NCBI GenBank assembly: GCA_964360785.1
Contig: CAYHXX010000001.1
Coordinates: 138,549 to 202,548, forward strand
Source of the DNA: an uncultured Gammaproteobacteria bacterium
Lineage (GTDB): Bacteria > Patescibacteriota > Microgenomatia > Woykebacterales > RBG-16-39-9b
Length of the DNA stretch: 64,000 bases
Direction: 5' to 3'
The notes beneath the pieces are model-generated. The model saw only the letters and a program-made list of their open reading frames with translations. It ran no database searches and was not told the DNA's origin. Of this stretch, positions 2,456 through 47,725 are shown piece after piece (positions within the stretch are counted from its first letter, which is position 1; each line of letters starts with the position of its first letter). The position numbers and the translations under genes were made by a program.

Positions 2456-2603
2456 GAGTAATAGACTTTTGTAGTGGTAGGTTGCAGGGGAGAAGGTGTG
2501 GACCCACCAGCTGGCGGATCACAAAAAAATTTGTCCCGATATTGGGGCAAATTACTACGTAATTATATCCTATATTTATCAAGAAGTCAATTATTGGGTC
2601 AAA

Positions 2604-7106: not shown

Positions 7107-7175
7107 CCCCAAGCAAACCAAGAGATTGGTTTTCTTAGGACAAGTAACTAGCTGAAAGGCTAGTTTTTTGTTGGT
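7107..7175 (+). terminator. Terminator-like double-hairpin repeat module, copy 1
   Basis: AACCAAGAGATTGGTT hairpin, then TTAGGACAA, then AACTAGCTGAAAGGCTAGTT hairpin plus TTTTTTG. The same module occurs at 8621..8668 and inverted at 37264..37333. Confidence 0.65.
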
Positions 7176-7185
7176 TAAATTAGTT

Positions 7186-7351
7186 TCAAAGTTCGAATCC
7201 CTGTCTGGAGAAAGTGGAAATTTGTGGCTAAAGCCTATGGAGCTCCAGAGCGGACACTACTAGAACTCTTAAGTGCTGTAAAGCAAATACAATACCCAAA
7301 CTTAGTTTTAAATGAAAGTACTTATCTTCTGAACCTAATCTCAGTCCTATA
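7186..7351 (+). repeat. Direct repeat R2. It starts with GTTCGAATCCCTGTC, identical to the T-arm/acceptor region of tRNA-Gln(CTG).
   Basis: The 15-mer gttcgaatccctgtc at 7191-7205 equals the sense sequence of the tRNA-Gln(CTG) 3' region at 10571-10585 (minus strand). The rest aligns with R1. Confidence 0.7.
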
Positions 7352-8620: not shown

Positions 8621-8668
8621 TTTAGGACAACAAACTAGCTGAAAGGCTAGTTTTTTGTTGGTTAAAAT
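8621..8668 (+). terminator. Terminator-like hairpin repeat module, copy 2
   Basis: ttaggacaacaaACTAGCTGAAAGGCTAGTTTTTTGTTGGTTAAA, nearly identical to 7131-7180. Confidence 0.6.
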
Positions 8669-8766: not shown

Positions 8767-8829
8767 TAGCGAGATCTATTAAATTGAGCTGAACATTAGC
8801 TCCGATCAGATCGGAGCGCAGAGCGCGAA

Positions 8830-8852
8830 GCGATCAACTCGCGCGTAAGTGG
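8830..8852 (-). pseudogene. Partial copy of the tRNA-Gly(GCC) 5' end
   Basis: Minus-strand CGCGCGAGTTGATCGC against the tRNA 5' GCGCGAGTAGTTCAGCG. It lies next to the palindrome GCTCCGATCAGATCGGAGC (8806-8824). Confidence 0.45.
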
Positions 8853-10464: not shown

Positions 10465-10559
10465 TGCTAAAATTGTTTCATGTTTGGGGAAAAGAGTAAA
10501 GGATTTGGATCCGGGGCTAGGACATGGAGTTTTCGCGTTGCGAAAAGCGAACCTATATC

Positions 10560-10633
10560 TGGCTGCGGGACAGGGATTCGAACCCCGATAAGCAGATCCA
10601 GATTCTGCTGTCCTACCGTTAGACGATCCCGCA
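10560..10633 (-). tRNA. tRNA-Gln(CTG)
   Basis: TGCGGGATCGTCTAACGGTAGGACAGCAGAATCTGGATCTGCTTATCGGGGTTCGAATCCCTGTCCCGCAGCCA. U1-A72 and G73 are typical of Gln; anticodon loop ATCTGGA. Confidence 0.8.
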
Positions 10634-10639
10634 ACAAAA

Positions 10640-10700
10640 AATAACTGTCCTGTCCGCCAGCTGGCGGATTGGATGCTAAAAGCATCTGCCCGCTAGACGA
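10640..10700. repeat. Palindrome CCGCCAGCTGGCGG plus a partial tRNA-Gln(CTG) 5' fragment
   Basis: The sequence gtccgccagctggcggattgg (10651-10672) shares a 20-mer with 37094-37117. tagacgatcccgg (10686-10698) duplicates the tRNA 5' region tagacgatcccgc. Confidence 0.6.
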
Positions 10701-10799
10701 TCCCGGAATGTTCTGGCATTTTAGCAAATCTGGCTTGGATTCTCAATTACAAACAAAAAGACCGCCTTGCAGCGGTCTTTTTTTGAATTCGTTTTTAGT

Positions 10800-23742: not shown

Positions 23743-23815
23743 AAAGATTTTGGTGGGCGAGGAGGGACAACTCGCTCATTCGCCTTCAGCGAAAGCCTAA
23801 CTCCCCTAATAAATT

Positions 23816-24619: not shown

Positions 24620-24694
24620 TGGTCGGGGTGACAGGGCTTGAACCTGCGGCCTCACGCTCCCAAAGCGCGCGCTCTACCACTGAGCTACACCCCG
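24620..24694 (-). tRNA. tRNA-Pro(TGG)
   Basis: CGGGGTGTAGCTCAGTGGTAGAGCGCGCGCTTTGGGAGCGTGAGGCCGCAGGTTCAAGCCCTGTCACCCCGACCA. Confidence 0.8.
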
Positions 24695-24710
24695 AAGTTA
24701 AAGTCTTTAC

Positions 24711-24785
24711 TGGTGCCGGATCGCGGAATCGAACCACGCACGCCCTGCTCTTCAGGCAGGCGCTCTACCACTGAGCTAATCCGGC
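24711..24785 (-). tRNA. tRNA-Phe(GAA)
   Basis: GCCGGATTAGCTCAGTGGTAGAGCGCCTGCCTGAAGAGCAGGGCGTGCGTGGTTCGATTCCGCGATCCGGCACCA. Confidence 0.85.
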
Positions 24786-24839
24786 GGAATTAGTCAAAGA
24801 TGCTCTTGCAACTAGCCAATATTACTTGTTTAAGTTTCA

Positions 24840-24885
24840 TTGGTCAGTGGCAAGCTTTGCTTACGACTGAGCTAATCCGGCTTAA
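24840..24885 (-). pseudogene. Partial tRNA-Phe 5' fragment (pseudo-tRNA)
   Basis: ctgagctaatccggc is identical to 15 nt of the tRNA-Phe 5' end, followed by a non-tRNA sequence ending TGACCA. Confidence 0.55.
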
Positions 24886-24934
24886 ATTTACGTTTCGGAT
24901 TTTGATTTTAGCACAAGTAGGATTACAAGAGAAG

Positions 24935-25390
24935 TTAAACTGCAGTTTCAGTTTTTGTTGATCTATATTTTTTATCTAGAGCAAAACGCATTATAACCAT
25001 CGGAATACAAGATAATACGAAGACTCCCAAAAAAATTATTGCAGAAATACCTACTGTTTCTCCAACACCCACACTATCTGCGGCCCTATAAATCATTCTA
25101 CCAATAAGCCACACAATCAAAATAGAACTCCCACCCAAAACAGCCCCTACTTTAGACGTGGTCGGGTTGATAAGCGCCTCATTATTATTTTGGTAGTTCT
25201 CTTGTTTAAGTTTCTCTTCTGGGGTCTTTACCCTTGTAAACCCAAGAGTTTTCCACCTCCTAAAAGCTTGTTTGTATGTGTAGATAGTTAGCGAAATTGC
25301 TAAATAAATTGAGAATAAATAAATAATCGTAGGTTCAAATAAACCTAAAATTGTAAAGATTGTTGCACCCATCCAAAAAATATACCTCAT
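24935..25390 (-). CDS. Membrane protein, hypothetical
   Basis: 151 aa, four predicted TM helices. Confidence 0.35.
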   Translation of the reverse strand: MRYIFWMGATIFTILGLFEPTIIYLFSIYLAISLTIYTYKQAFRRWKTLGFTRVKTPEEKLKQENYQNNNEALINPTTSKVGAVLGGSSILIVWLIGRMIYRAADSVGVGETVGISAIIFLGVFVLSCIPMVIMRFALDKKYRSTKTETAV

Positions 25391-25464
25391 TTGGAAAGAG
25401 TAGCAAAAATTATGATAACTGGCAACAGTACATGGGGTGCTTGAGGGACAGAACCGTTTGCCTC

Positions 25465-25500
25465 GAAAAACGAACCCCTGACCTACTCAGTGTAGGAATG
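25465..25500 (-). pseudogene. Partial tRNA-Val fragment (T-arm to anticodon stem)
   Basis: cgaacccctgacctactcagtgtag against cgaacccctgacctactcggtgtaa in the intact gene (22 of 25 identical). Confidence 0.55.
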
Positions 25501-25522
25501 CTAAAGCATCCTGCGAAAATTC

Positions 25523-25599
25523 TGGTGGGCACCAAGGGACTCGAACCCCTGACCTACTCGGTGTAAACGAGTCGCTCTAACCAACTGAGCTAGGTGCCC
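25523..25599 (-). tRNA. tRNA-Val(TAC)
   Basis: GGGCACCTAGCTCAGTTGGTTAGAGCGACTCGTTTACACCGAGTAGGTCAGGGGTTCGAGTCCCTTGGTGCCCACCA. Confidence 0.85.
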
Positions 25600-25664
25600 A
25601 GAATTTTCTAAAACAAGACGCTCTACTTTTGTGCAAAGCACAAATGCATCATACTCCGACTGAA

Positions 25665-26069
25665 CTAAGAACCCAGAAAATATTTTTCTAAAGCTTTAAA
25701 GTACAAACCACCATCATCAAGTTTCTGATAATTTTCCTTATTTACCCATTCATAGTTTAAATGTTCATCGCTAATAGTAACTTCACCACCAGTAAATTCA
25801 CATTTGTATCCGACAAGGAAAATAGTTTTCCCTCCGTGCTTTCCACTAAGACAAACTCTGTGCCAGACAGCAAAAGGATCTCCAATTTTTATTTCCAGAC
25901 CTGTCTCTTCGTTTACTTCTCGTTTTAGACTTTCCTCAAAGTCCGTTTCACCTTCCTGAATTTTTCCGCCAGGAAAATCCAATCCATTATCAGCTTCCAT
26001 AACTAAGATCTTCCCATTATTGTTAATAAAAGCTTTTTGCCCAACATAAAAAAATTTGTCTTTAGCCAT
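25665..26069 (-). CDS. NUDIX hydrolase
   Basis: Nudix box GGKIQEGETDFEESLKREVNEETGL. The start was trimmed to MAKDKFF because the longer ORF runs into tRNA-Leu. Confidence 0.75.
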   Translation of the reverse strand: MAKDKFFYVGQKAFINNNGKILVMEADNGLDFPGGKIQEGETDFEESLKREVNEETGLEIKIGDPFAVWHRVCLSGKHGGKTIFLVGYKCEFTGGEVTISDEHLNYEWVNKENYQKLDDGGLYFKALEKYFLGS

Positions 26070-26075
26070 AATTTC

Positions 26076-26159
26076 TGGTGCGGATGAGAGGACTCGAACC
26101 TCCAACCCTTGCGGGACATGCACCTCAAGCATGCGCGTATACCATTCCGCCACATCCGC
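26076..26159 (-). tRNA. tRNA-Leu(GAG)
   Basis: GCGGATGTGGCGGAATGGTATACGCGCATGCTTGAGGTGCATGTCCCGCAAGGGTTGGAGGTTCGAGTCCTCTCATCCGCACCA. Confidence 0.8.
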
Positions 26160-26182
26160 AAAACCTCAGTATTCTAACATAT

Positions 26183-26269
26183 TGGTGCGGGCGAGAGGAG
26201 TCGAACCTCCACATCATTGCTGATACTGGAACCTGAATCCAGCGCGTCTACCATTCCGCCACGCCCGCA
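26183..26269 (-). tRNA. tRNA-Leu(CAG)
   Basis: GCGGGCGTGGCGGAATGGTAGACGCGCTGGATTCAGGTTCCAGTATCAGCAATGATGTGGAGGTTCGACTCCTCTCGCCCGCACCA. Confidence 0.8.
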
Positions 26270-26348
26270 AAGAATAGCTAGTATATCATTTTTGAAGCTA
26301 AATTACGACACTATTTACTTGACGGAACTTTTGAACTATATTTTCACT

Positions 26349-26753
26349 ATGAATCGTCCAATGGTAGCTGGTTTGATCATCAAAAACCACAAAATTCTTC
26401 TTGTTCACAACACCAAACACAATTCCTTCCGTATCGAGCCACCCGGCGGTAAAGTTGAAGAAAACGAATCTTTTCAAGCGGCGACAAACCGCGAGCTTGA
26501 GGAGGAGCTCGGAATAAAAGTTCATGTAGGTAAGCTATTCGGGACTTACCAAACAAACTCCCCCGAAGGGGACTTTAGTGTTAGCCTGTTTATTTGTGAA
26601 ATTGCTTCAGGAAATCCTCAACTTTCAGAACCAGAAATAATCAGCAACTTCGGATGGTATTCTTATGAACAGCTTCTTTCTTTGAGAAAGGAAGGGAACC
26701 TTGTCCCAAATATGGTCTCGGCTCTACCAAAACTCAAAAATATCCTAAACTAG
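26349..26753 (+). CDS. NUDIX hydrolase (second, divergent paralog)
   Basis: Nudix box GGKVEENESFQAATNRELEEELGI. The start was trimmed to MNRPMVAG because the annotated ORF start overlaps tRNA-Leu(CAG). Confidence 0.7.
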   Translation: MNRPMVAGLIIKNHKILLVHNTKHNSFRIEPPGGKVEENESFQAATNRELEEELGIKVHVGKLFGTYQTNSPEGDFSVSLFICEIASGNPQLSEPEIISNFGWYSYEQLLSLRKEGNLVPNMVSALPKLKNILN

Positions 26754-26781
26754 AGGAGACTTTTGTGTTAATATTTTACCA

Positions 26782-27909
26782 ATGGATTTTGGTAAACTCG
26801 CGCTCGCACAAGCAAAAAAACATCACGGAAAAATAGAAGTTGTTTCCAAAATAAAAGTTAATTCCCGTGAAGATCTCTCGACTGCTTATACCCCTGGAGT
26901 TGCACAGGTTTCTCTTGAAGTTTCCAAAAACAAAGCCAAGGCCTATGATCTGACCATCAAGGGTAACTCTGTGGCTGTTGTCTCCGACGGCACTGCTGTT
27001 CTTGGTTTGGGTGATATCGGTCCCGAAGGCGCAATGCCGGTGATGGAGGGGAAGGCCTTACTTTTCAAAGAATTTGCTGGTATTGATGCTTACCCAATCG
27101 TTCTTAACACCAAGGAGCCGGATGAAATTGTTGCAATAGTCAAGGCAATTTCCCCTGGTTTCGCTGGAATCAACCTCGAAGATATCTCCGCACCCCGCTG
27201 TTTTGAGGTTGAAGAACGACTCCAGGATATCGGTATTCCTGTTTTTCATGATGATCAGCATGGTACTGCGATTGTTCTCTTGGCGGCTTTGTTGAACAGT
27301 CTAAAGGTAGTTAAAAAACAAATGAAGGATATCAAAGTTGTAATTGCTGGCGCAGGAGCCGCTGGTATTGCCACTGCCAAAATCCTCAAACCAGGAAAAT
27401 TAGTACTAATTGACTCGAAAGGTCCTATCAACAAAAAAAGGACCGACCTTAACAAATACAAAAAACAAATTGCTGCTCTAGCCTACTATGAGAACTGCAA
27501 AGACCTGGACGAAGTTTTTAAAAATGCTGACGTTTTTATCGGTCTTTCTGGTAAAGGAAAGCTGACCGCTGCCCAGATATCCAAAATGAATAAAAAAGCC
27601 ATCGTTTTCGCTCTTTCCAATCCGACTCCGGAAATACTCCCGGAGGAGGCCAAAAAAGCTGGTGCCGCAGTTGTCGCCACTGGTCGTAGCGATTACCCAA
27701 ACCAAATTAACAACGTTTTGGCTTTCCCAGGAGTTTTTCGTGGGGCAATCGACAGGAAAGCACTGAGAATTACAGAAGCAATGAAACTCAAAGCCGCTGA
27801 GACTTTAGCTTCCTTCGTAAAACGCCCTACAAAAGATAAAATCTTACCTAGCCCACTCGAGAAACAAGTAGCTAAGAAAATATCCTCCGCCATTAAAAAT
27901 CTTAAATAA
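26782..27909 (+). CDS. NAD(P)-dependent malic enzyme (short form)
   Basis: Malic enzyme N-terminal block AYTPGVA...[12 protein letters not shown] and NAD-binding GAGAAG. Confidence 0.8.
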
Positions 27910-27913
27910 ATTT

Positions 27914-37093: not shown

Positions 37094-37150
37094 TCGGTCC
37101 GCCAGCTGGCGGATTGAGTGCGGAGCACTTGCGTCCCTCCAGGCGCGCCA
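37094..37150 (+). repeat. Palindrome CCGCCAGCTGGCGG plus a partial 3' copy of tRNA-Arg (att-like scar)
   Basis: The sequence tcggtccgccagctggcggattgag is followed by gtccctccaggcgcgcca (against the tRNA 3' end atccctctgggcgcgcca, 14 of 16). Confidence 0.6.
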
Positions 37151-37263: not shown

Positions 37264-37333
37264 AACTAACAAAAAACTAGCCTTCCAGCTAGTTAATTGT
37301 CCTAAGAAAACCAATCTTATTGATTTGCTTGGG
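37264..37333 (-). terminator. Terminator-like double-hairpin repeat module, copy 3 (inverted)
   Basis: On the minus strand: CCCAAGCAAATCAATAAGATTGGTTTTCTTAGGACAATTAACTAGCTGGAAGGCTAGTTTTTTGTTAGTTAA, matching 7107-7175. Confidence 0.6.
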
Positions 37334-38325: not shown

Positions 38326-38603
38326 CTCTGTGTCCTTTCTCTACAAGTAGTTGGTAGGTCTCCAAAACTACCCGCCACAAGCTCTCTTATTTAAACAGTA
38401 TTATATCAAAAAGAGGAAAATTATCAAGACTATGGGACTTGGCTACCCGGGTAGGATTCGAACCAGGATCTTGAAGAAACGAAAAAACTTTATTTCGATA
38501 TAAATAGTGGGCTATAATTGATATTCTTGAGATCTTGGTAAAGATTATTTAAACTAACCAGGAGGGGTTCGAGCTCAAGGTCGAGACCCCACCATTTACT
38601 TAT

Positions 38604-41232: not shown

Positions 41233-41307
41233 GATTTAAGTAAGTGGTTCAGGGTTCGCCCTTTTGCGAAGCGAAATGTGCGTTTTGTCCCAGGCCGCTC
41301 ACCATAT

Positions 41308-45766: not shown

Positions 45767-47725
45767 CTAGTGGTTCGGATTTCGCCAACGGTAGAAATAG
45801 GGATACAAAAAGGAAACTGCTACCAAAAGTAAAACTACAAGCAATCCAATCTGTTGGGCTTCGAGGCTAAAGAAGGGCTTTACAAACAATTGTTTACTTT
45901 CTTTTAGCTTTATTTCTTTTTGTCCATCTTTCCCACTAAGATCAAAGATTAGTTTTGCCTGTTTGTTGTCAAGTAAAGAGTCGCTACGAACTCTTAAGTC
46001 AAAACTGCGTTTTTCAAATGGAAGTATGATACCTAGATCTTTCTCCTTCGGCTCGATAATCCCAAGAGTAGAGTTGTCAGAAGTTATTGCCAGTTTGGAA
46101 CTAAATACTGCCCGACCCGTCTGGTTTTCAATAGTTACCTTTCCCCTGGATGGGAATCCTGAAACAACTTTTTCTTTGTTGTAGATGATTTTTGGCTCAG
46201 CTGCAAATTTTACCTCCTCATTGCTAAACTCTACCTTTACATCATCAGTTTGGCTTGGAGAAGTTTTGTAAGCTCCGGCTGGAAGTGGCTCCTCACTAGA
46301 GACACCGTTGATAGCAAATACAAAGTGGTTTGTATCAAGCTTGGTAAAATAATCCAAACCACCAGTGGTCGATCCCCAAGTCGGATCAACCTGAATCCAG
46401 CGACCTTTTTCTTTATCATAGTATTCTGGCCAGGCGTGGAGTACGGTGGTGTCCACCAAACCTTCGATCTTAGTTGGTCTCAGGTTCGTATTGTCTGTGT
46501 AGGCAAATCCCACTACACCCCGAGCCGGAATACCCTTTGCCCGAGCCAGAGCGACAAAAAGGTCAGAGAAATCGGTACAAATTGATTTTTCTGGTTGATT
46601 AAAGGCATTCAAAGAGCCTCTTCTGCCTAGAGAATTGGACTGCAACCGCGAATAGTCGTATTTTAGTGTTGTCGTGACATAGTTATAGATTTCTTCTATA
46701 TTTTTAAGTTCTTTTGCTTTCTTTTGAATTTGTTGATTCTCAGAATCAATATATTTATCGCTTTTTACAAAAAGTTTGAGATCCGCTTCGGTCCAATTTT
46801 TTGGTTTCTGCACTGAGGTTTCTGAATCAAATATCTTGACCAAACCCTTGGCAATCACTTCGAGATTACTACCACCTTTGATACTGTATTCGGCAATATA
46901 GTTTCCAGACGGGTCGACAGACATAACAGTTGGCCTTGGATCCAAACTCTGGTAATAGAGTGCTTGATATTCAGTATCAGGCGGTAAGGTAATTTTTCCT
47001 TTTGCCGGGTAGACATTCTTATTTTTATAACGATATTTGAGTGTAAAACTAAAAAGCTGAAACTCTCCAAAATTAGCGTTTATCCCGCTAATCGAATTTT
47101 TTGTGAAAACATAATTTGTTGCTGCTAGAGTTTCGCTCGTCTGATCAGCAAGTGGGGACATCTTTCCAAGCGGACCAAAGCTCTTGGGGACAGATAAACT
47201 AAGTTTGTAGGAGGACAGGTTTTCATTGGTAACTATTTGCGGTACATTTATTTCCCACACCTTTCCTCTTTTGAGAGCCAGTGAATCAATCGTGTAATTT
47301 ATTTTGAAGTTTACTGATTTTCCCTGACCAACTATCTGCTGGTTGAGTTTGGCAATCAGTACCGTTGAACTTTCTTGAGCCTTTGTGGAAATACTGAGTG
47401 ACCCCAGCCCATCAGTTCCAGACACATCCGTTACTTTGTCTGAACCAGTTGTGATCGAATACTCTGAAGCGAAATAATCTTTAGTCAGATTTGTCAGGGT
47501 AATATTGTGAGCTACCCGCGCCTGACCGTTGTCACCAAAGGTAAAACTGATGTCATAGCCGGTGGAAAACTGTGCACTTGCCTCTACACTCTGCTTGGCA
47601 GGCAGAAAACCTAATAATAGCAAGAACAGTAGGATTGTTGAAAAAAGACGTTGAGTGAGATTTTTTATGGGCATGTGTATATAAGCGATTTTATCAATAA
47701 TCTTTCCCGGGCGCAATTTAGACAA
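45767..47725 (-). CDS. Large transglutaminase-like (Cys-His-Asp) domain protein with N- and C-terminal membrane anchors
   Basis: CTDFSDLFVALARAKGIPAR...LHAWPEYY...WIQVDPT forms a transglutaminase-core catalytic triad; C-terminal TM helix. Confidence 0.6.
   Translation of the reverse strand: MSKLRPGKIIDKIAYIHMPIKNLTQRLFSTILLFLLLLGFLPAKQSVEASAQFSTGYDISFTFGDNGQARVAHNITLTNLTKDYFASEYSITTGSDKVTDVSGTDGLGSLSISTKAQESSTVLIAKLNQQIVGQGKSVNFKINYTIDSLALKRGKVWEINVPQIVTNENLSSYKLSLSVPKSFGPLGKMSPLADQTSETLAATNYVFTKNSISGINANFGEFQLFSFTLKYRYKNKNVYPAKGKITLPPDTEYQALYYQSLDPRPTVMSVDPSGNYIAEYSIKGGSNLEVIAKGLVKIFDSETSVQKPKNWTEADLKLFVKSDKYIDSENQQIQKKAKELKNIEEIYNYVTTTLKYDYSRLQSNSLGRRGSLNAFNQPEKSICTDFSDLFVALARAKGIPARGVVGFAYTDNTNLRPTKIEGLVDTTVLHAWPEYYDKEKGRWIQVDPTWGSTTGGLDYFTKLDTNHFVFAINGVSSEEPLPAGAYKTSPSQTDDVKVEFSNEEVKFAAEPKIIYNKEKVVSGFPSRGKVTIENQTGRAVFSSKLAITSDNSTLGIIEPKEKDLGIILPFEKRSFDLRVRSDSLLDNKQAKLIFDLSGKDGQKEIKLKESKQLFVKPFFSLEAQQIGLLVVLLLVAVSFLYPYFYRWRNPNH

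Follow-up and report, generated by a model that had tools for sequence, protein, structure and literature searches.

The anticodon and T loops of tRNA genes are classical targets of integrases. In E. coli tyrT, repeat units with the 3' end of tRNA-Tyr follow the gene, and in integrons, cassettes made up of a promoter-less gene and a hairpin-forming attC site are inserted downstream of a resident promoter. CPR bacteria usually carry one gene per tRNA. Prokaryotic tRNA gene fragments left as att duplications by integrating genetic elements have been reviewed (PMC9897764). In Caldiarchaeum subterraneum, the 5' fragment of a tRNA-Thr variant is found 1.8 kb upstream of a second variant, with a recombinase-encoding mobile element between them, and was read as the result of disruption by insertion (PMC3293823). 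In Patescibacteria, group I introns have been described in tRNA anticodon loops, the host tRNA genes being missed by standard finders (PMC13011429). No published description of the nested tRNA-remnant architecture reported here was found in the literature.

In this study, we report tRNA gene fragments beside the intact tRNA genes of a groundwater ultra-small CPR bacterium (Microgenomates, Woykebacteria-like), in a stretch of 64,000 nt referred to as the window. The fragments are probably the severed ends of older genes for the same tRNA, split by a new promoter-less copy in a recurrent process. The remnants are homologous to intact orthologs, the change runs from intact to nested, the fragments keep a strand and side polarity, and the arrangement recurs across loci and genomes.

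Like att duplications, the fragments are partial same-strand copies beside an intact gene, with break points in the anticodon or T loop, and are recurrent. Here, however, the insert amounts to just another complete tRNA (80-210 bp with flanks) with no adjacent integrase, upstream 5' pieces are as frequent as downstream 3' pieces, and the fragments belong to a different allele, the working gene lying inside the old one. The Caldiarchaeum locus is similar in having a 5' fragment upstream of a complete second variant, and in the heterogeneity of close relatives, but it is archaeal, holds a 1.8-kb element with a recombinase gene and is tied to intron gain, whereas the present loci are bacterial, contain no element gene, keep both old halves within about 200 bp and involve many tRNA identities. 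The intron-bearing genes of Patescibacteria share the phylum and the anticodon-loop target; in the window, by contrast, no intron was matched in Rfam (E <= 10) and the insert holds a whole tRNA. As the outer gene is mostly without its anticodon region, splicing cannot restore it, and the outer Arg, Gln-CTG and Val copies of the window do not form exons encoding a complete tRNA, as an intron-containing or split tRNA would. Nor do the loci as a group show the terminal inverted repeats, or the 147 kb searched the dispersed copies, that would mark tRNA-carrying MITEs. The downstream same-strand 3'-end copies recall E. coli tyrT, but there the repeats are tandem self-repeats at one locus, whereas here they derive from heterologous alleles, are accompanied by 5' pieces, are nested and carry loop insertions.

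Table 1. Coordinates of tRNA genes, remnants and associated elements in the window
Feature	Position	Strand	Remark
Weak 5' remnant (GCGCGAGTTG) and hairpin	8816-8844	-	upstream of tRNA-Gly(GCC)
Nested tRNA-Gln(CTG), whole locus	10506-10707	-	
Gln-CTG old allele, positions 1-18	10690-10707	-	18/18 match
Gln-CTG D-loop insertion	10652-10689	-	38 nt, two hairpins
Gln-CTG AGGACAG	10645-10651	-	
Working tRNA-Gln(CTG)	10560-10633	-	
Gln-CTG ATAGGTTCG	10548-10556	-	
Gln-CTG T-loop insertion	10522-10547	-	26 nt
Gln-CTG old 3' end CCTAGCCCCGGATCCA	10506-10521	-	
3' remnant, tRNA-Leu(TAA)	23751-23806	-	downstream of gene; T-loop hairpin insertion
tRNA-Pro(TGG)	24620-24694	-	comes after tRNA-Phe
Working tRNA-Phe(GAA)	24711-24785	-	
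Phe leader hairpin TCAGT-C-GTAAGC-AAA-GCTTGC-C-ACTGA	24844-24870	-	inserted in old D loop
5' remnant of older tRNA-Phe gene	24866-24881	-	positions 1-16, 16/16 to working gene
Extended -10-like box TGTGCTAAAAT	24905-24915	-	23 nt upstream of Phe remnant; read from sequence
Orphan 151-aa membrane-like ORF	24935-25390	-	between Val 3' and Phe 5' remnants
Rest of Val 3' remnant TCCCTCAAGCACCCCA	25433-25448	-	3' T-stem strand, 3' acceptor strand, degenerate CCA
Insertion in old Val T loop TTTTTCGAGGCAAACGGTTCTG	25449-25470	-	22 nt
3' remnant of older tRNA-Val(TAC)	25471-25494	-	positions 35-58, 23/24
Hairpin GCAGGATGCTTTAGCATTCC	25495-25514	-	between working tRNA-Val and its 3' remnant
Working tRNA-Val(TAC)	25523-25599	-	GGGCACC/GGTGCCC allele
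Old Val 3' D-stem and 5' anticodon-stem strands TAGAGCGTCTTGTTT	25611-25625	-	
Val D-loop hairpin insertion	25626-25655	-	
5' remnant of another older tRNA-Val GGGTTCTTAGTTCAGTCGG	25656-25674	-	15/17 to L086 allele, positions 3-19
3' remnant, tRNA-Gln(TTG)	33700-33752	-	abuts gene directly; T-loop insertion
Nested tRNA-Arg(TCG), whole locus	36945-37150	+	
Arg-TCG old allele, positions 1-17	36945-36961	+	
Arg-TCG D-loop insertion	36962-36995	+	
Arg-TCG AGAGCACTA	36996-37004	+	
Working tRNA-Arg(TCG)	37010-37085	+	
Arg-TCG GAGTTCG	37090-37096	+	
Arg-TCG T-loop insertion	37097-37133	+	37 nt
Arg-TCG old 3' end TCCCTCCAGGCGCGCCA	37134-37150	+	
3' remnant-like trailer (...GTCCCAGGCCGCTCACCA)	41250-41304	+	after tRNA-Lys(CTT); T-loop insertion; by eye only, below BLAST threshold

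The remnant upstream of tRNA-Phe, GCCGGATTAGCTCAGT, is an exact 16-nt copy on the strand of the gene, 80 nt from its 5' end (24785), and the hairpin inserted in its old D loop was found by folding to pair with its D-arm portion. Leaders with the same hairpin architecture, some with two-sided pair changes, precede tRNA-Phe in the related genome L086 and tRNA-Pro in L087 and L168, and in L086 a diverged orthologous Phe remnant (GACGGATTAGACCAGTGGTAGG) is found some 95 nt ahead of tRNA-Phe. We infer that the box TGTGCTAAAAT is the putative promoter of a transcript comprising the remnant, tRNA-Phe and tRNA-Pro. Because its 16 nt are common to all Phe alleles seen, L087 and L184 excepted, the fragment is not assignable to a foreign allele, and as no 3' counterpart exists in the window, the Phe fragment itself may be the product of local duplication or gene conversion. 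The only extra DNA at the fragments is a 737-nt gap holding the orphan ORF, which had no Pfam match and matched only itself among 5.8 billion proteins; Val and Phe are spaced by 1-22 nt in L087, L167, L168 and L184.

The copy beside tRNA-Val, 28 nt downstream of the 3' end of the gene (25523), spans the anticodon loop, the 3' anticodon-stem strand, the variable loop, the 5' T-stem strand and the start of the T loop. In a gapped alignment with the tRNA-Val of L167, the insertion TTTTTCGAGGCAAACGGTTCTG falls between TTCG and TCCC, and the sequence that follows, TCCCTCAAGCACCCCA, matches the GGGTGCT/AGCACCC allele, which is the working tRNA-Val in L167; a related remnant (...TAGCACCCA) is found downstream of tRNA-Val in L086. 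The 5' remnant upstream of the working gene overlaps the final codons and TAG stop of a NUDIX gene, and its leader has homologues in L087 and L083 with two-sided stem changes (GTGC/GCAC, GATC/GATC, TGGC/GCCA); tRNA-Val of L169 is nested, yet without the D-loop insertion. The best matches of the 5' and 3' remnants are the L086 and L167 alleles, respectively, over short stretches (15/17 for the 5' piece), and the window's own allele fits the 24-nt core as well as that of L167. As the Val remnants fit different alleles, their reconstruction needs at least two events. By eye, the end of the Val T-loop insertion resembles that of the L087 Gln-TTG T-loop insertion, and the hairpin GCAGGATGCTTTAGCATTCC, which a two-hairpin profile search did not recover, resembles the first hairpin of the Gln-CTG D-loop insertion.

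Both focal copies had been noticed in a first-pass annotation, as 15 nt of the tRNA-Phe 5' end (about 24870-24884, about 90 bp away) and a near-copy of tRNA-Val (22/25, 25473-25497, about 45 bp away), and were confirmed with the borders and distances given above. When the ±300-nt flanks were subjected to 200 dinucleotide-preserving shuffles, the self-similarity scores of Val, Phe and Gln-CTG (21, 17 and 13) were above those of every shuffle (maxima 11, 10 and 12), while Arg-TCG was marginal (score 11, P=0.01) and Gly-GCC on its own was not significant (score 8, P=0.6). When probed with tRNA alleles from relatives, 6 of the 14 tRNAs of the window (about nine by eye) had significant same-strand remnants no more than 200 nt away: on both sides of Arg-TCG and Gln-CTG, upstream of Phe, downstream of Gln-TTG and Leu-TAA, and as an internal piece at Val. 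The earlier estimate of at least five of 14 loci therefore holds. Its extension to Gly-GCC, Gln-CTG and Arg-TCG stands for the latter two, which are significant with the relatives' probes; the Gly-GCC copy GCGCGAGT (8816-8844), of just 8-10 nt, is not significant alone but occupies the same place in L085 and L086.

All window fragments lie on the strand of their tRNA, 5' pieces upstream and 3' pieces downstream. Among 78 tRNAs of the clade, 79 of 79 same-amino-acid fragment matches were on the tRNA strand and none on the opposite strand, with a 5' piece upstream in 11, a 3' piece downstream in 10 and both in six. In a non-CPR control, a comparable fragment was seen at only one of about 70 tRNAs. 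Relatives comprised about 12 genomes, all metagenome assemblies and several with short contigs; a metagenome scan with the DegT aminotransferase yielded just two useful ones, and a contig scan with the Lon protease gave best relatives of at most 58% identity, non-syntenic and almost without tRNAs, which were used as a non-relative control. Under the strict test, no remnant was found in L086 or L184 (14 tRNAs each), although diverged Phe and Val remnants are visible by eye in L086. When the whole window was searched with Rfam, at gathering thresholds and at E <= 10, only the 14 tRNAs were found, the flanks containing neither a pseudo-tRNA nor an intron nor any other family, and the tRNA model picked up no fragment even at E <= 10. 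The split outer genes were not recovered by ARAGORN in intron mode; its one match in a relative was rejected as spurious because it sits in coding sequence.

The Gln-CTG and Arg-TCG loci hold both halves of an older gene around a complete one. At Gln-CTG, the outer pieces match the alleles of L083 and L182 (18/18 and 17/17), and the inner tRNA is identical to that of L086 (74/74). In L182/L183, the closest relative found (FemAB identity 83%), the old gene is intact at the same site, with the promoter and downstream sequence shared with the window. The acceptor sequence of the Arg leader and trailer, GCGCCTG/CAGGCGC, is exactly that of the L086 tRNA-Arg at the same site (15/15 and 17/17), where the gene is intact and directly followed by tRNA-His, and the working Arg gene differs from it in a compensatory manner (GCGCCCA/TGGGCGC). 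The outer Arg, Gln-CTG and Val copies have lost the anticodon loop and adjoining stems. In this respect they differ from the tRNA-Glu of L014 (a Gottesmanbacteria MAG), which is split within the anticodon by a block with a complete tRNA-Glu; both its halves are nearly complete and it has no D- or T-loop insertion. A 5' remnant with hairpins also occurs in L003 (a Parcubacteria MAG).

The same exchange of alleles was seen elsewhere. Leu-CAG is intact behind the same promoter in the window and L169, and in L170, L168 and L167 it is split by another Leu-CAG allele, with D- and T-loop insertions. The end of the Leu-TAA remnant matches the L087 Leu-TAA allele (17/18) and that of the Gln-TTG remnant, CCTAGCCCGGCAGCC, matches Gln alleles of the TGCCGGA type in L086 and L184, so that trailers of the window match alleles of L087, L086 and L184; its working Leu-TAA and Gln-TTG alleles, in turn, occur in L088 and L087 as split outer copies. 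Remnants of Arg, Gln-CTG, Gln-TTG, Leu-TAA and Leu-CAG are thus closer to orthologs of other genomes than to the adjacent gene, at five of the seven loci that can be judged, Phe and the 24-nt Val core being uninformative on allele origin. Since intact same-site genes of relatives match the flanking fragments and not the inner tRNA, the resident was probably split, and most of the fragments do not represent plain self-duplication. The fragments described earlier as self-copies are real, but where alleles can be distinguished, most match the orthologous tRNA of a relative. The tRNA-Leu(TAA) of L186 has two stacked 3' remnants, and because of these and of the Val remnants that fit two alleles, tRNA replacement is, as read from the sequences, serial. 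The recurring process at tRNA genes that had been proposed is supported by these fragments, and recombination between tRNA paralogs, also suggested, does occur: L085 has a chimeric tRNA-Gln whose 5' part is of the TTG type and whose 3' end is of the CTG type.

The old D and T loops of the displaced halves usually contain GC-rich hairpin insertions, which belong to a few recurring sequence families; those in the T loops of the window Gln-TTG and the L088 Leu-TAA are nearly identical. The two-hairpin profile gave eight significant matches (E <= 0.02) in 147 kb, seven of them its own seeds, all inside tRNA remnants and none elsewhere, and a dispersed MITE was rejected on this distribution. The palindrome CCGCCAGCTGGCGG has one more near-copy, at 2504-2517, not obviously linked to a tRNA. 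Inverted repeats between leader and trailer were significant in two of eight loci, the window Arg (P=0.002) and L014; a long duplex was rejected as a general feature, as the six other nested loci were not significant, and a terminal-inverted-repeat transposon model thus does not generalise. Remnant segments detected by BLAST are about 98% identical to intact alleles (334/341), a value biased upward by local alignments, which pick matching stretches, and yet each remnant locus holds two or three large indels, a combination that points to a compound or rapid event or to constraint, and speaks against slow neutral decay. Promoter-like boxes lie upstream of the outer 5' pieces, and the AT-rich spacer between these pieces and the inner tRNAs is only 3-17 nt. 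The same TGnTAAAAT/TAGAAT box as at the Phe remnant stands ahead of the Gln-CTG and Arg-TCG remnants and of the intact orthologous genes in L182 and L086; the extended -10 boxes were read by eye and were not called by a simple promoter scan.

The earlier suggestion of repeated integration and excision at tRNAs, in which the fragments would be att-site scars of prophages or islands since excised or decayed, fits the anticodon and T-loop targets, the orphan ORF between the Val 3' and Phe 5' remnants, and the L014 insertion, which is flanked by a CAGGT(T)C direct repeat and whose ends, if joined, would form an anticodon-arm-like hairpin resembling attP/attB. At the insertion junctions of the window no common core was recognised. 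The Val, Leu-TAA, Gln-TTG, Arg and Gln-CTG trailers agree with the 3' direct repeat expected of an att duplication, but the leaders of Phe, Arg, Gln-CTG, Val and Gly lie upstream and consist of 5' parts, and such pieces, half of all fragments, are not normal for island duplications. Moreover, no integrase or transposase domain was found in 30 scanned ORFs of the window, including all tRNA neighbours, or in the gene tables of related loci; the would-be elements measure merely 80-210 bp and are essentially one complete tRNA; at 28-96 nt from their genes, the fragments do not mark the far end of a kb-sized integrase element; the outer pieces are of a different allele from the adjacent gene; and no sign of excision was seen. 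In that form the suggestion is not supported, and we regard att scars as distinctly unlikely. Partial tandem duplication of a tRNA gene together with flanking DNA, through replication slippage or unequal crossing-over and with subsequent decay and occasional gene conversion, would involve no foreign allele. The Phe fragment (16/16) and Val core (23/24) are indeed as close to the adjacent gene as to any allele, and the Pro 5' remnants of L087 and L168 carry the position 6 variant of their own genome, which suggests gene conversion with the neighbour. Such duplication cannot, however, place the halves of one gene on both sides of a complete gene, and at five loci (Arg, Gln-CTG, Gln-TTG, Leu-TAA and Leu-CAG) the inner gene and the outer pieces are not alike, with compensatory acceptor-stem pairs among the differences, and the outer pieces equal the intact ortholog of another genome; as a general account it is quite improbable.

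It is very improbable that the leaders and trailers are RNA elements built for pre-tRNA maturation, for example as processing stems, nuclease sites or insulators, and merely resemble tRNA ends, given their base-for-base homology to real orthologous tRNA genes, which speaks against a de novo origin, and their absence from many tRNAs of the same genomes and from the compact arrays of L184 and L086. Hairpin structure is nonetheless kept through two-sided changes in the homologous Val and Phe/Pro leaders, with the T-loop insertions the old T stem becomes a long helix, the Arg leader can pair with its trailer over a long stretch, and the outer acceptor pair 6:67 of nested Leu-CAG is C-G in L170 and T-A in L167 and L168; a role as RNA elements can be an add-on, by exaptation of relics, and not an alternative origin. 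Chimeric joins of co-existing strain alleles at tRNA genes could in principle mimic nesting, as all data are metagenomic and a same-sample ENA contig ends inside the tRNA-Pro/Phe cluster. However, an independent ENA assembly contig equals window 24641-29307 with two mismatches in 4667 nt and so reproduces both focal fragments, nested loci are found again in assemblies of different samples from NCBI, ENA, JGI and Logan, and the diverged homologous insertions show compensatory stem changes, unlike assembly errors, which makes an artefact extremely improbable.

In the splitting of older genes that we favour, a promoter-less copy of a different allele, with a few flanking bases, would insert in the anticodon-arm region of the resident tRNA gene and be transcribed from the resident promoter. 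Of the resident, the acceptor strand and D arm on the 5' side would become a leader, and the T arm, acceptor strand and CCA on the 3' side a trailer, and repeated rounds would stack the remnants. The Phe fragment would accordingly represent the 5' end of a displaced gene with its D-loop hairpin, and the Val fragment the middle of a displaced 3' half, followed by the T-loop insertion and the old acceptor end; the additional, different Val 5' end ahead of the working gene would be the remnant of another displaced gene. The incoming copies may stem from the DNA of related cells, through site-specific or homology-facilitated illegitimate recombination at the tRNA. The hairpins may arrive with the event, or may be selected to keep the dead halves from folding back into a tRNA-like decoy or pairing wrongly with the new tRNA. 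Neither a recombinase nor a reverse transcriptase nor any other insertion agent was identified. A phage origin of the incoming alleles was rejected: the inner Leu-CAG allele had no exact match in IMG/VR, and a 17-mer of the T-loop insertion had matches in unrelated repeats alone, none near a tRNA. Retro-insertion of a mature tRNA was not supported, as neither the inner nor the outer tRNA-Glu of L014 encodes CCA, so that a CCA-tailed retrocopy is not indicated; all window tRNA genes encode CCA and are uninformative on this point.

A more specific version, which we consider unlikely, is a dedicated tRNA-cassette exchange in CPR bacteria, in which promoter-less tRNA genes with hairpin recombination sites would pass between cells and a trans-acting recombinase would put them into the anticodon loop of the cognate resident gene. 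The D- and T-loop hairpins would then be recombination sites or built-in inactivators of the displaced copy, and not decay products. By analogy with integrons, a resident promoter would drive a promoter-less unit, border hairpins are conserved in structure and variable in sequence, and layers are serial, but here the cargo is a tRNA and the target its cognate tRNA gene. No IntI-type integrase or tyrosine recombinase was present among the scanned ORFs or the gene tables of related loci, no attI was found, and no GTTRRRY core was apparent by eye.

These loci also bear on annotation, since such fragments and split copies mislead tRNA finders and interrupt assemblies. They raise the questions of which agent places a tRNA exactly within its own cognate gene, why the dead halves gain the same D- and T-loop hairpins, and how pre-tRNAs with tRNA-like leaders and trailers are processed. 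With one gene per tRNA in CPR bacteria, each replacement swaps an essential single-copy part of translation. The nested relics are a physical record of these swaps, preserving the order of alleles and the re-use of the resident promoter; they show tRNA alleles moving independently of the genome that carries them, and offer a direct way to measure horizontal tRNA gene turnover.

Beside tRNA-Phe and tRNA-Val, the partial gene copies described in the first-pass annotation were confirmed: 16/16 positions agree for Phe and 23/24 for Val, and dinucleotide shuffles of the ±300-nt flanks never reached either score. For Gln-CTG the observed score was also above every shuffle, for Arg-TCG the self-similarity was marginal, and the Gly-GCC fragment, taken alone, had no significance against shuffled flanks. 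The Rfam tRNA model detected no fragment in the window. An independent ENA contig agrees with the window over 24641-29307, apart from 2 mismatches in 4667 nt. The ENA contig L001, from the same sample, breaks inside tRNA-Pro (window ~24620-24700), so assemblies break at these relic-bearing tRNA clusters.

Reading all 14 tRNA genes of the window (41.7% G+C; CCA encoded in all 14) together with their flanks revealed a recurring layout, in which a complete, working tRNA lies between the severed 5' part (leader) and 3' part (trailer) of an older gene of the same tRNA. A promoter-like extended -10 box (TGnTAAAAT or TAGAAT) is followed by a copy of approximately the first 16-19 nt of the tRNA (5' acceptor strand and D arm), one or two GC-rich hairpins, a few bases matching the D-stem 3' strand and the anticodon-stem start, and an AT-rich spacer of 3-17 nt. 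The working tRNA and a spacer of 0-8 nt come next, then (G)GTTCG, corresponding to the T-stem 5' strand and T-loop start, a 20-40 nt insertion containing a hairpin, and finally the T-stem 3' strand, 3' acceptor strand and CCA. The inner genes lack their own promoter-like box and lie behind the promoter of the displaced gene. At Arg-TCG the outer strands pair perfectly (GCGCCTG with CAGGCGC), and the working tRNA has GCGCCCA/TGGGCGC; since the outer strands pair with each other and differ from the working gene, the outer pieces are one unit and not copies of the inner gene.

Relics, insertions, tRNA-like matches and associated features in the window
Feature	Position	Strand	Description
Arg-TCG locus	36945-37150		whole layout
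Gln-CTG locus	10506-10707		whole layout
Val locus			both sides of layout
Phe and Gly-GCC loci			leader only
Leu-TAA, Gln-TTG and Lys-CTT loci			trailer only
Phe fragment GCCGGATTAGCTCAGT	24866-24881	minus (gene strand)	exact repeat of tRNA-Phe positions 1-16, 80 nt upstream of gene
Val fragment TACACTGAGTAGGTCAGGGGTTCG	25471-25494	minus (gene strand)	tRNA-Val positions 35-58, 28 nt downstream of gene
Val T-loop insertion	25449-25470		22 nt
Val 3' end TCCCTCAAGCACCCCA	25433-25448		follows T-loop insertion
Val 5' remnant GGGTTCTTAGTTCAGTCGG	25656-25674	minus	upstream of working Val; 15/17 to L086 allele, positions 3-19
NUDIX gene	25665-26072	minus	ends in Val 5' remnant
Orphan ORF	24935-25390	minus	151 aa, membrane-like
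Promoter-like site	25406-25379	minus	orphan ORF region
Hairpin AAAAACTAGCCTTTCAGCTAGTT	7146-7168	minus	23 nt, terminator-like
Hairpin AAAAACTAGCCTTTCAGCTAGTT	8633-8655	minus	
Hairpin AAAAACTAGCCTTTCAGCTAGTT	37272-37294	plus	
tRNA-Gln(CTG) T-arm fragment	7191-7205		15 nt
Arg D-loop copy of two-hairpin unit	36964-36982		profile match
Palindrome CCGCCAGCTGGCGG	10654-10667		part of Gln-CTG D-loop insertion
Palindrome CCGCCAGCTGGCGG	37099-37112		part of Arg T-loop insertion
Near-copy CCACCAGCTGGCGG of palindrome	2504-2517		intergenic, no obvious tRNA relic
tRNA-Gln-like 3' end CCTGGTTCGAATCCTACCCGGGTAGCCA	38440-38467	minus	lone; intergenic, upstream of ORF of unknown function
T-arm-like bits	38558-38573		
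tRNA-Leu(CAG) anticodon-arm match	46388-46402	strand of ORF	exact, 15 nt; within transglutaminase-like ORF

Related contigs from about a dozen genomes (L-numbers) were reached via FemAB, NUDIX and DegT homologs, and sequence comparison identifies the relics as homologous to intact orthologous genes. In L086, tRNA-Arg(TCG) lies directly before tRNA-His behind the same promoter as in the window and reads GCGCCTGTAGCTCAGCGG...TCCCTCCAGGCGCGCCA; its ends equal the outer Arg pieces of the window (15/15 and 17/17). The closest relative found, L182/L183 (FemAB identity 83%), carries an intact tRNA-Gln(CTG) at the corresponding site, sharing with the window both the promoter and the downstream sequence up to FemAB, and the ends of this gene are the outer Gln-CTG pieces of the window. 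The inner Gln-CTG gene is identical to that of L086 (74/74), a genome with only 71% FemAB identity. The Leu-CAG site is intact in the window and L169; behind the same promoter in L170, L168 and L167, a second Leu-CAG allele (identical in L168 and L170) splits the gene, accompanied by insertions in the D and T loops. These three before/after pairs give the direction of change, intact first and nested later, which makes the nested arrangement the derived one. Alleles also change roles between genomes: the Leu-TAA and Gln-TTG genes that work in the window are found split, as outer copies, in L088 and L087, and the trailers at these two window loci match alleles that L087, L086 and L184 carry intact. 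The nested Leu-CAG loci differ at outer acceptor pair 6:67 (C-G in L170, T-A in L167/L168), a difference consistent with the inner block having moved into different resident alleles, or else with pairing being selected.

At the Val locus the 3' remnant extends past the 24-mer, and 24-mer and TCCCTCAAGCACCCCA align to the GGGTGCT/AGCACCC allele, the working tRNA-Val of L167; the window's own allele fits the 24-nt core equally well, so this assignment depends on the 16-nt end. L086 also has a related relic, ...TAGCACCCA, after its tRNA-Val. Behind the 5' remnant come a D-loop hairpin and TAGAGCGTCTTGTTT, the old D-stem and anticodon-stem strand. Because the two remnants best match different alleles (L086 and L167), the locus seems to preserve relics of two or more predecessors. 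L087 and L083 carry homologs of this leader in which the hairpin stem has changed on both sides, and the working tRNA behind homologous leaders differs (two Val-TAC alleles, one Val-GAC). The NUDIX gene ends in ...CTG GGT TCT TAG inside the remnant, and its last codons and stop codon are thus old tRNA sequence; the orthologous ORF likewise runs into the working tRNA-Val in L167 and stops just before it in L168. Val and Phe are 1-22 nt apart in L087, L167, L168 and L184 and 737 nt apart in the window, where the gap contains an orphan ORF that has no Pfam domain and for which 5.8 billion proteins included no homolog. The hairpin after the Phe 5' remnant pairs with the remnant's own TCAGT. A diverged remnant with a hairpin occupies the same place in L086, and the same hairpin module stands behind a tRNA-Pro 5' remnant in L087 and L168. 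As the first 16 nt are common to all Phe alleles seen except those of L087 and L184, a foreign origin cannot be demonstrated for the Phe remnant, which may have undergone gene conversion with the neighbouring gene.

The insertions in old D and T loops form families. Seven copies were aligned to define the two-hairpin unit (G/A)CAGATGC-TTC-GCATC-CAAT-CCNNN...NNNGG-AC, and the resulting profile had 8 significant matches in 147 kb, 7 being its own seeds and one, the Arg D-loop copy, new; all 8 sit inside tRNA remnants, where the unit runs forward in former D loops and reversed in former T loops. A shorter T-loop insertion, nearly identical in the window Gln-TTG relic and the L088 Leu-TAA relic, lengthens the old T stem to a long helix. 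A third motif, AGATCGCT...GCGCTCTGCGC, recurs, as judged by eye, in the Leu-CAG, Leu-TAA and Gly-GCC leaders. One copy of hairpin AAAAACTAGCCTTTCAGCTAGTT lies after tRNA-Gly(GCC), another after tRNA-His and the third beside the tRNA-Gln(CTG) T-arm fragment; with three copies found against 0.01 expected by chance, tRNA flanks also appear to have been copied between loci. The lone tRNA-Gln-like end has no adjoining working tRNA. The match in the transglutaminase-like ORF, far from tRNAs, is probably due to chance (E ~0.004 per query, 14 queries).

Among 78 clade tRNAs, a 5' remnant lay upstream of 11, a 3' remnant downstream of 10, and both were present at 6; relic strand and side are strict, with 79/79 BLAST matches near a same-amino-acid tRNA on the strand of that tRNA and none opposite. 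Same-strand self-matches (score ≥12 within 300 nt) were found for 9/58 clade tRNAs versus 3/74 in unrelated loci, and two of these three are themselves CPR. In one, the Gottesmanbacteria MAG L014 (13500-13800), a 131-nt block with a complete tRNA-Glu splits a tRNA-Glu inside the anticodon; both outer halves are intact, a CAGGT(T)C repeat is present at the junctions, and the event is young-looking. If joined, the block ends would form the hairpin GGCAGG-TCCCG-CCTGCC, which resembles an anticodon arm and looks like an att site. The other, Parcubacteria MAG L003, has a 5' remnant interrupted by hairpins. At tRNA-Leu(TAA) of L186 (2380-2660), a 5' remnant lies upstream and two successive 3' remnants downstream, each carrying a T-loop hairpin insertion, a stack that looks like at least two rounds of replacement. 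L184 (FemAB identity 62%) has tight tRNA arrays with almost no relics and is probably close to the ancestral state.

The recurring process at tRNAs proposed in the first-pass annotation extends over different tRNA identities, different genomes and no fewer than three CPR lineages, but it is most probably serial replacement by nested insertion and not integration and excision of elements. The 30 window ORFs scanned are ordinary chromosomal genes (Lon, UvrABC, LexA, MurT, FemAB, type IV pilus, glutamate dehydrogenase, malic enzyme, NUDIX hydrolases), and none has an integrase or transposase domain; no insertion agent was found among them. Among named taxa, Candidatus Woykebacteria (Microgenomates, CPR/Patescibacteria) come closest, and window proteins are present on contigs from the 0.1-µm filter fraction of Hainich groundwater. 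Fragments of tRNA left by integrating elements are well known (PMC9897764), an archaeal 5' tRNA-Thr fragment lies 1.8 kb upstream of another variant with a recombinase-bearing element between (PMC3293823), and group I introns of Patescibacteria target the same loop (PMC13011429). None of these shows the full combination seen here: essentially the sole cargo is a complete cognate tRNA, both halves of the old gene flank it within ~200 bp, genes of an element are absent, the D- and T-loop hairpins are family-like, and many tRNA identities are involved. No description of this nested architecture turned up in the full-text literature searched, which is no proof of novelty. That the insertions are simply the ends of one transposon was rejected, since leader-trailer inverted repeats were significant only for the window Arg locus and L014. 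Retro-copying of mature tRNA is opposed by the L014 inner copy, which lacks CCA. Slow neutral decay fits poorly with the finding that remnant segments are ~98% identical to intact alleles (334/341 in BLAST-detected segments, biased upward as local alignments choose matching stretches) at loci that each carry two or three large indels; either the insertions would arrive with or soon after the event, or the relics would be under constraint. Recombination between tRNA paralogs, also proposed earlier, has direct evidence in the sequence of a tRNA-Gln upstream of FemAB in L085 (3341-3414), which reads as a chimera of a TTG-type 5' acceptor (TGCCGGA) and a CTG-type 3' end (TCCCGCAGCCA), with a resulting 4:69 mismatch.

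Under serial replacement, the incoming tRNA copies would come from related cells, because alleles and genomes are incongruent, and would enter as DNA. Recombination may take place at the anticodon arm, either site-specifically or by homology-facilitated illegitimate recombination. The Phe/Pro hairpin sequesters D-arm bases of the remnant. The hairpins may be part of the inserted unit, or they may be selected because they prevent the dead halves from folding back into a decoy that resembles a tRNA, or from mispairing with the new tRNA.
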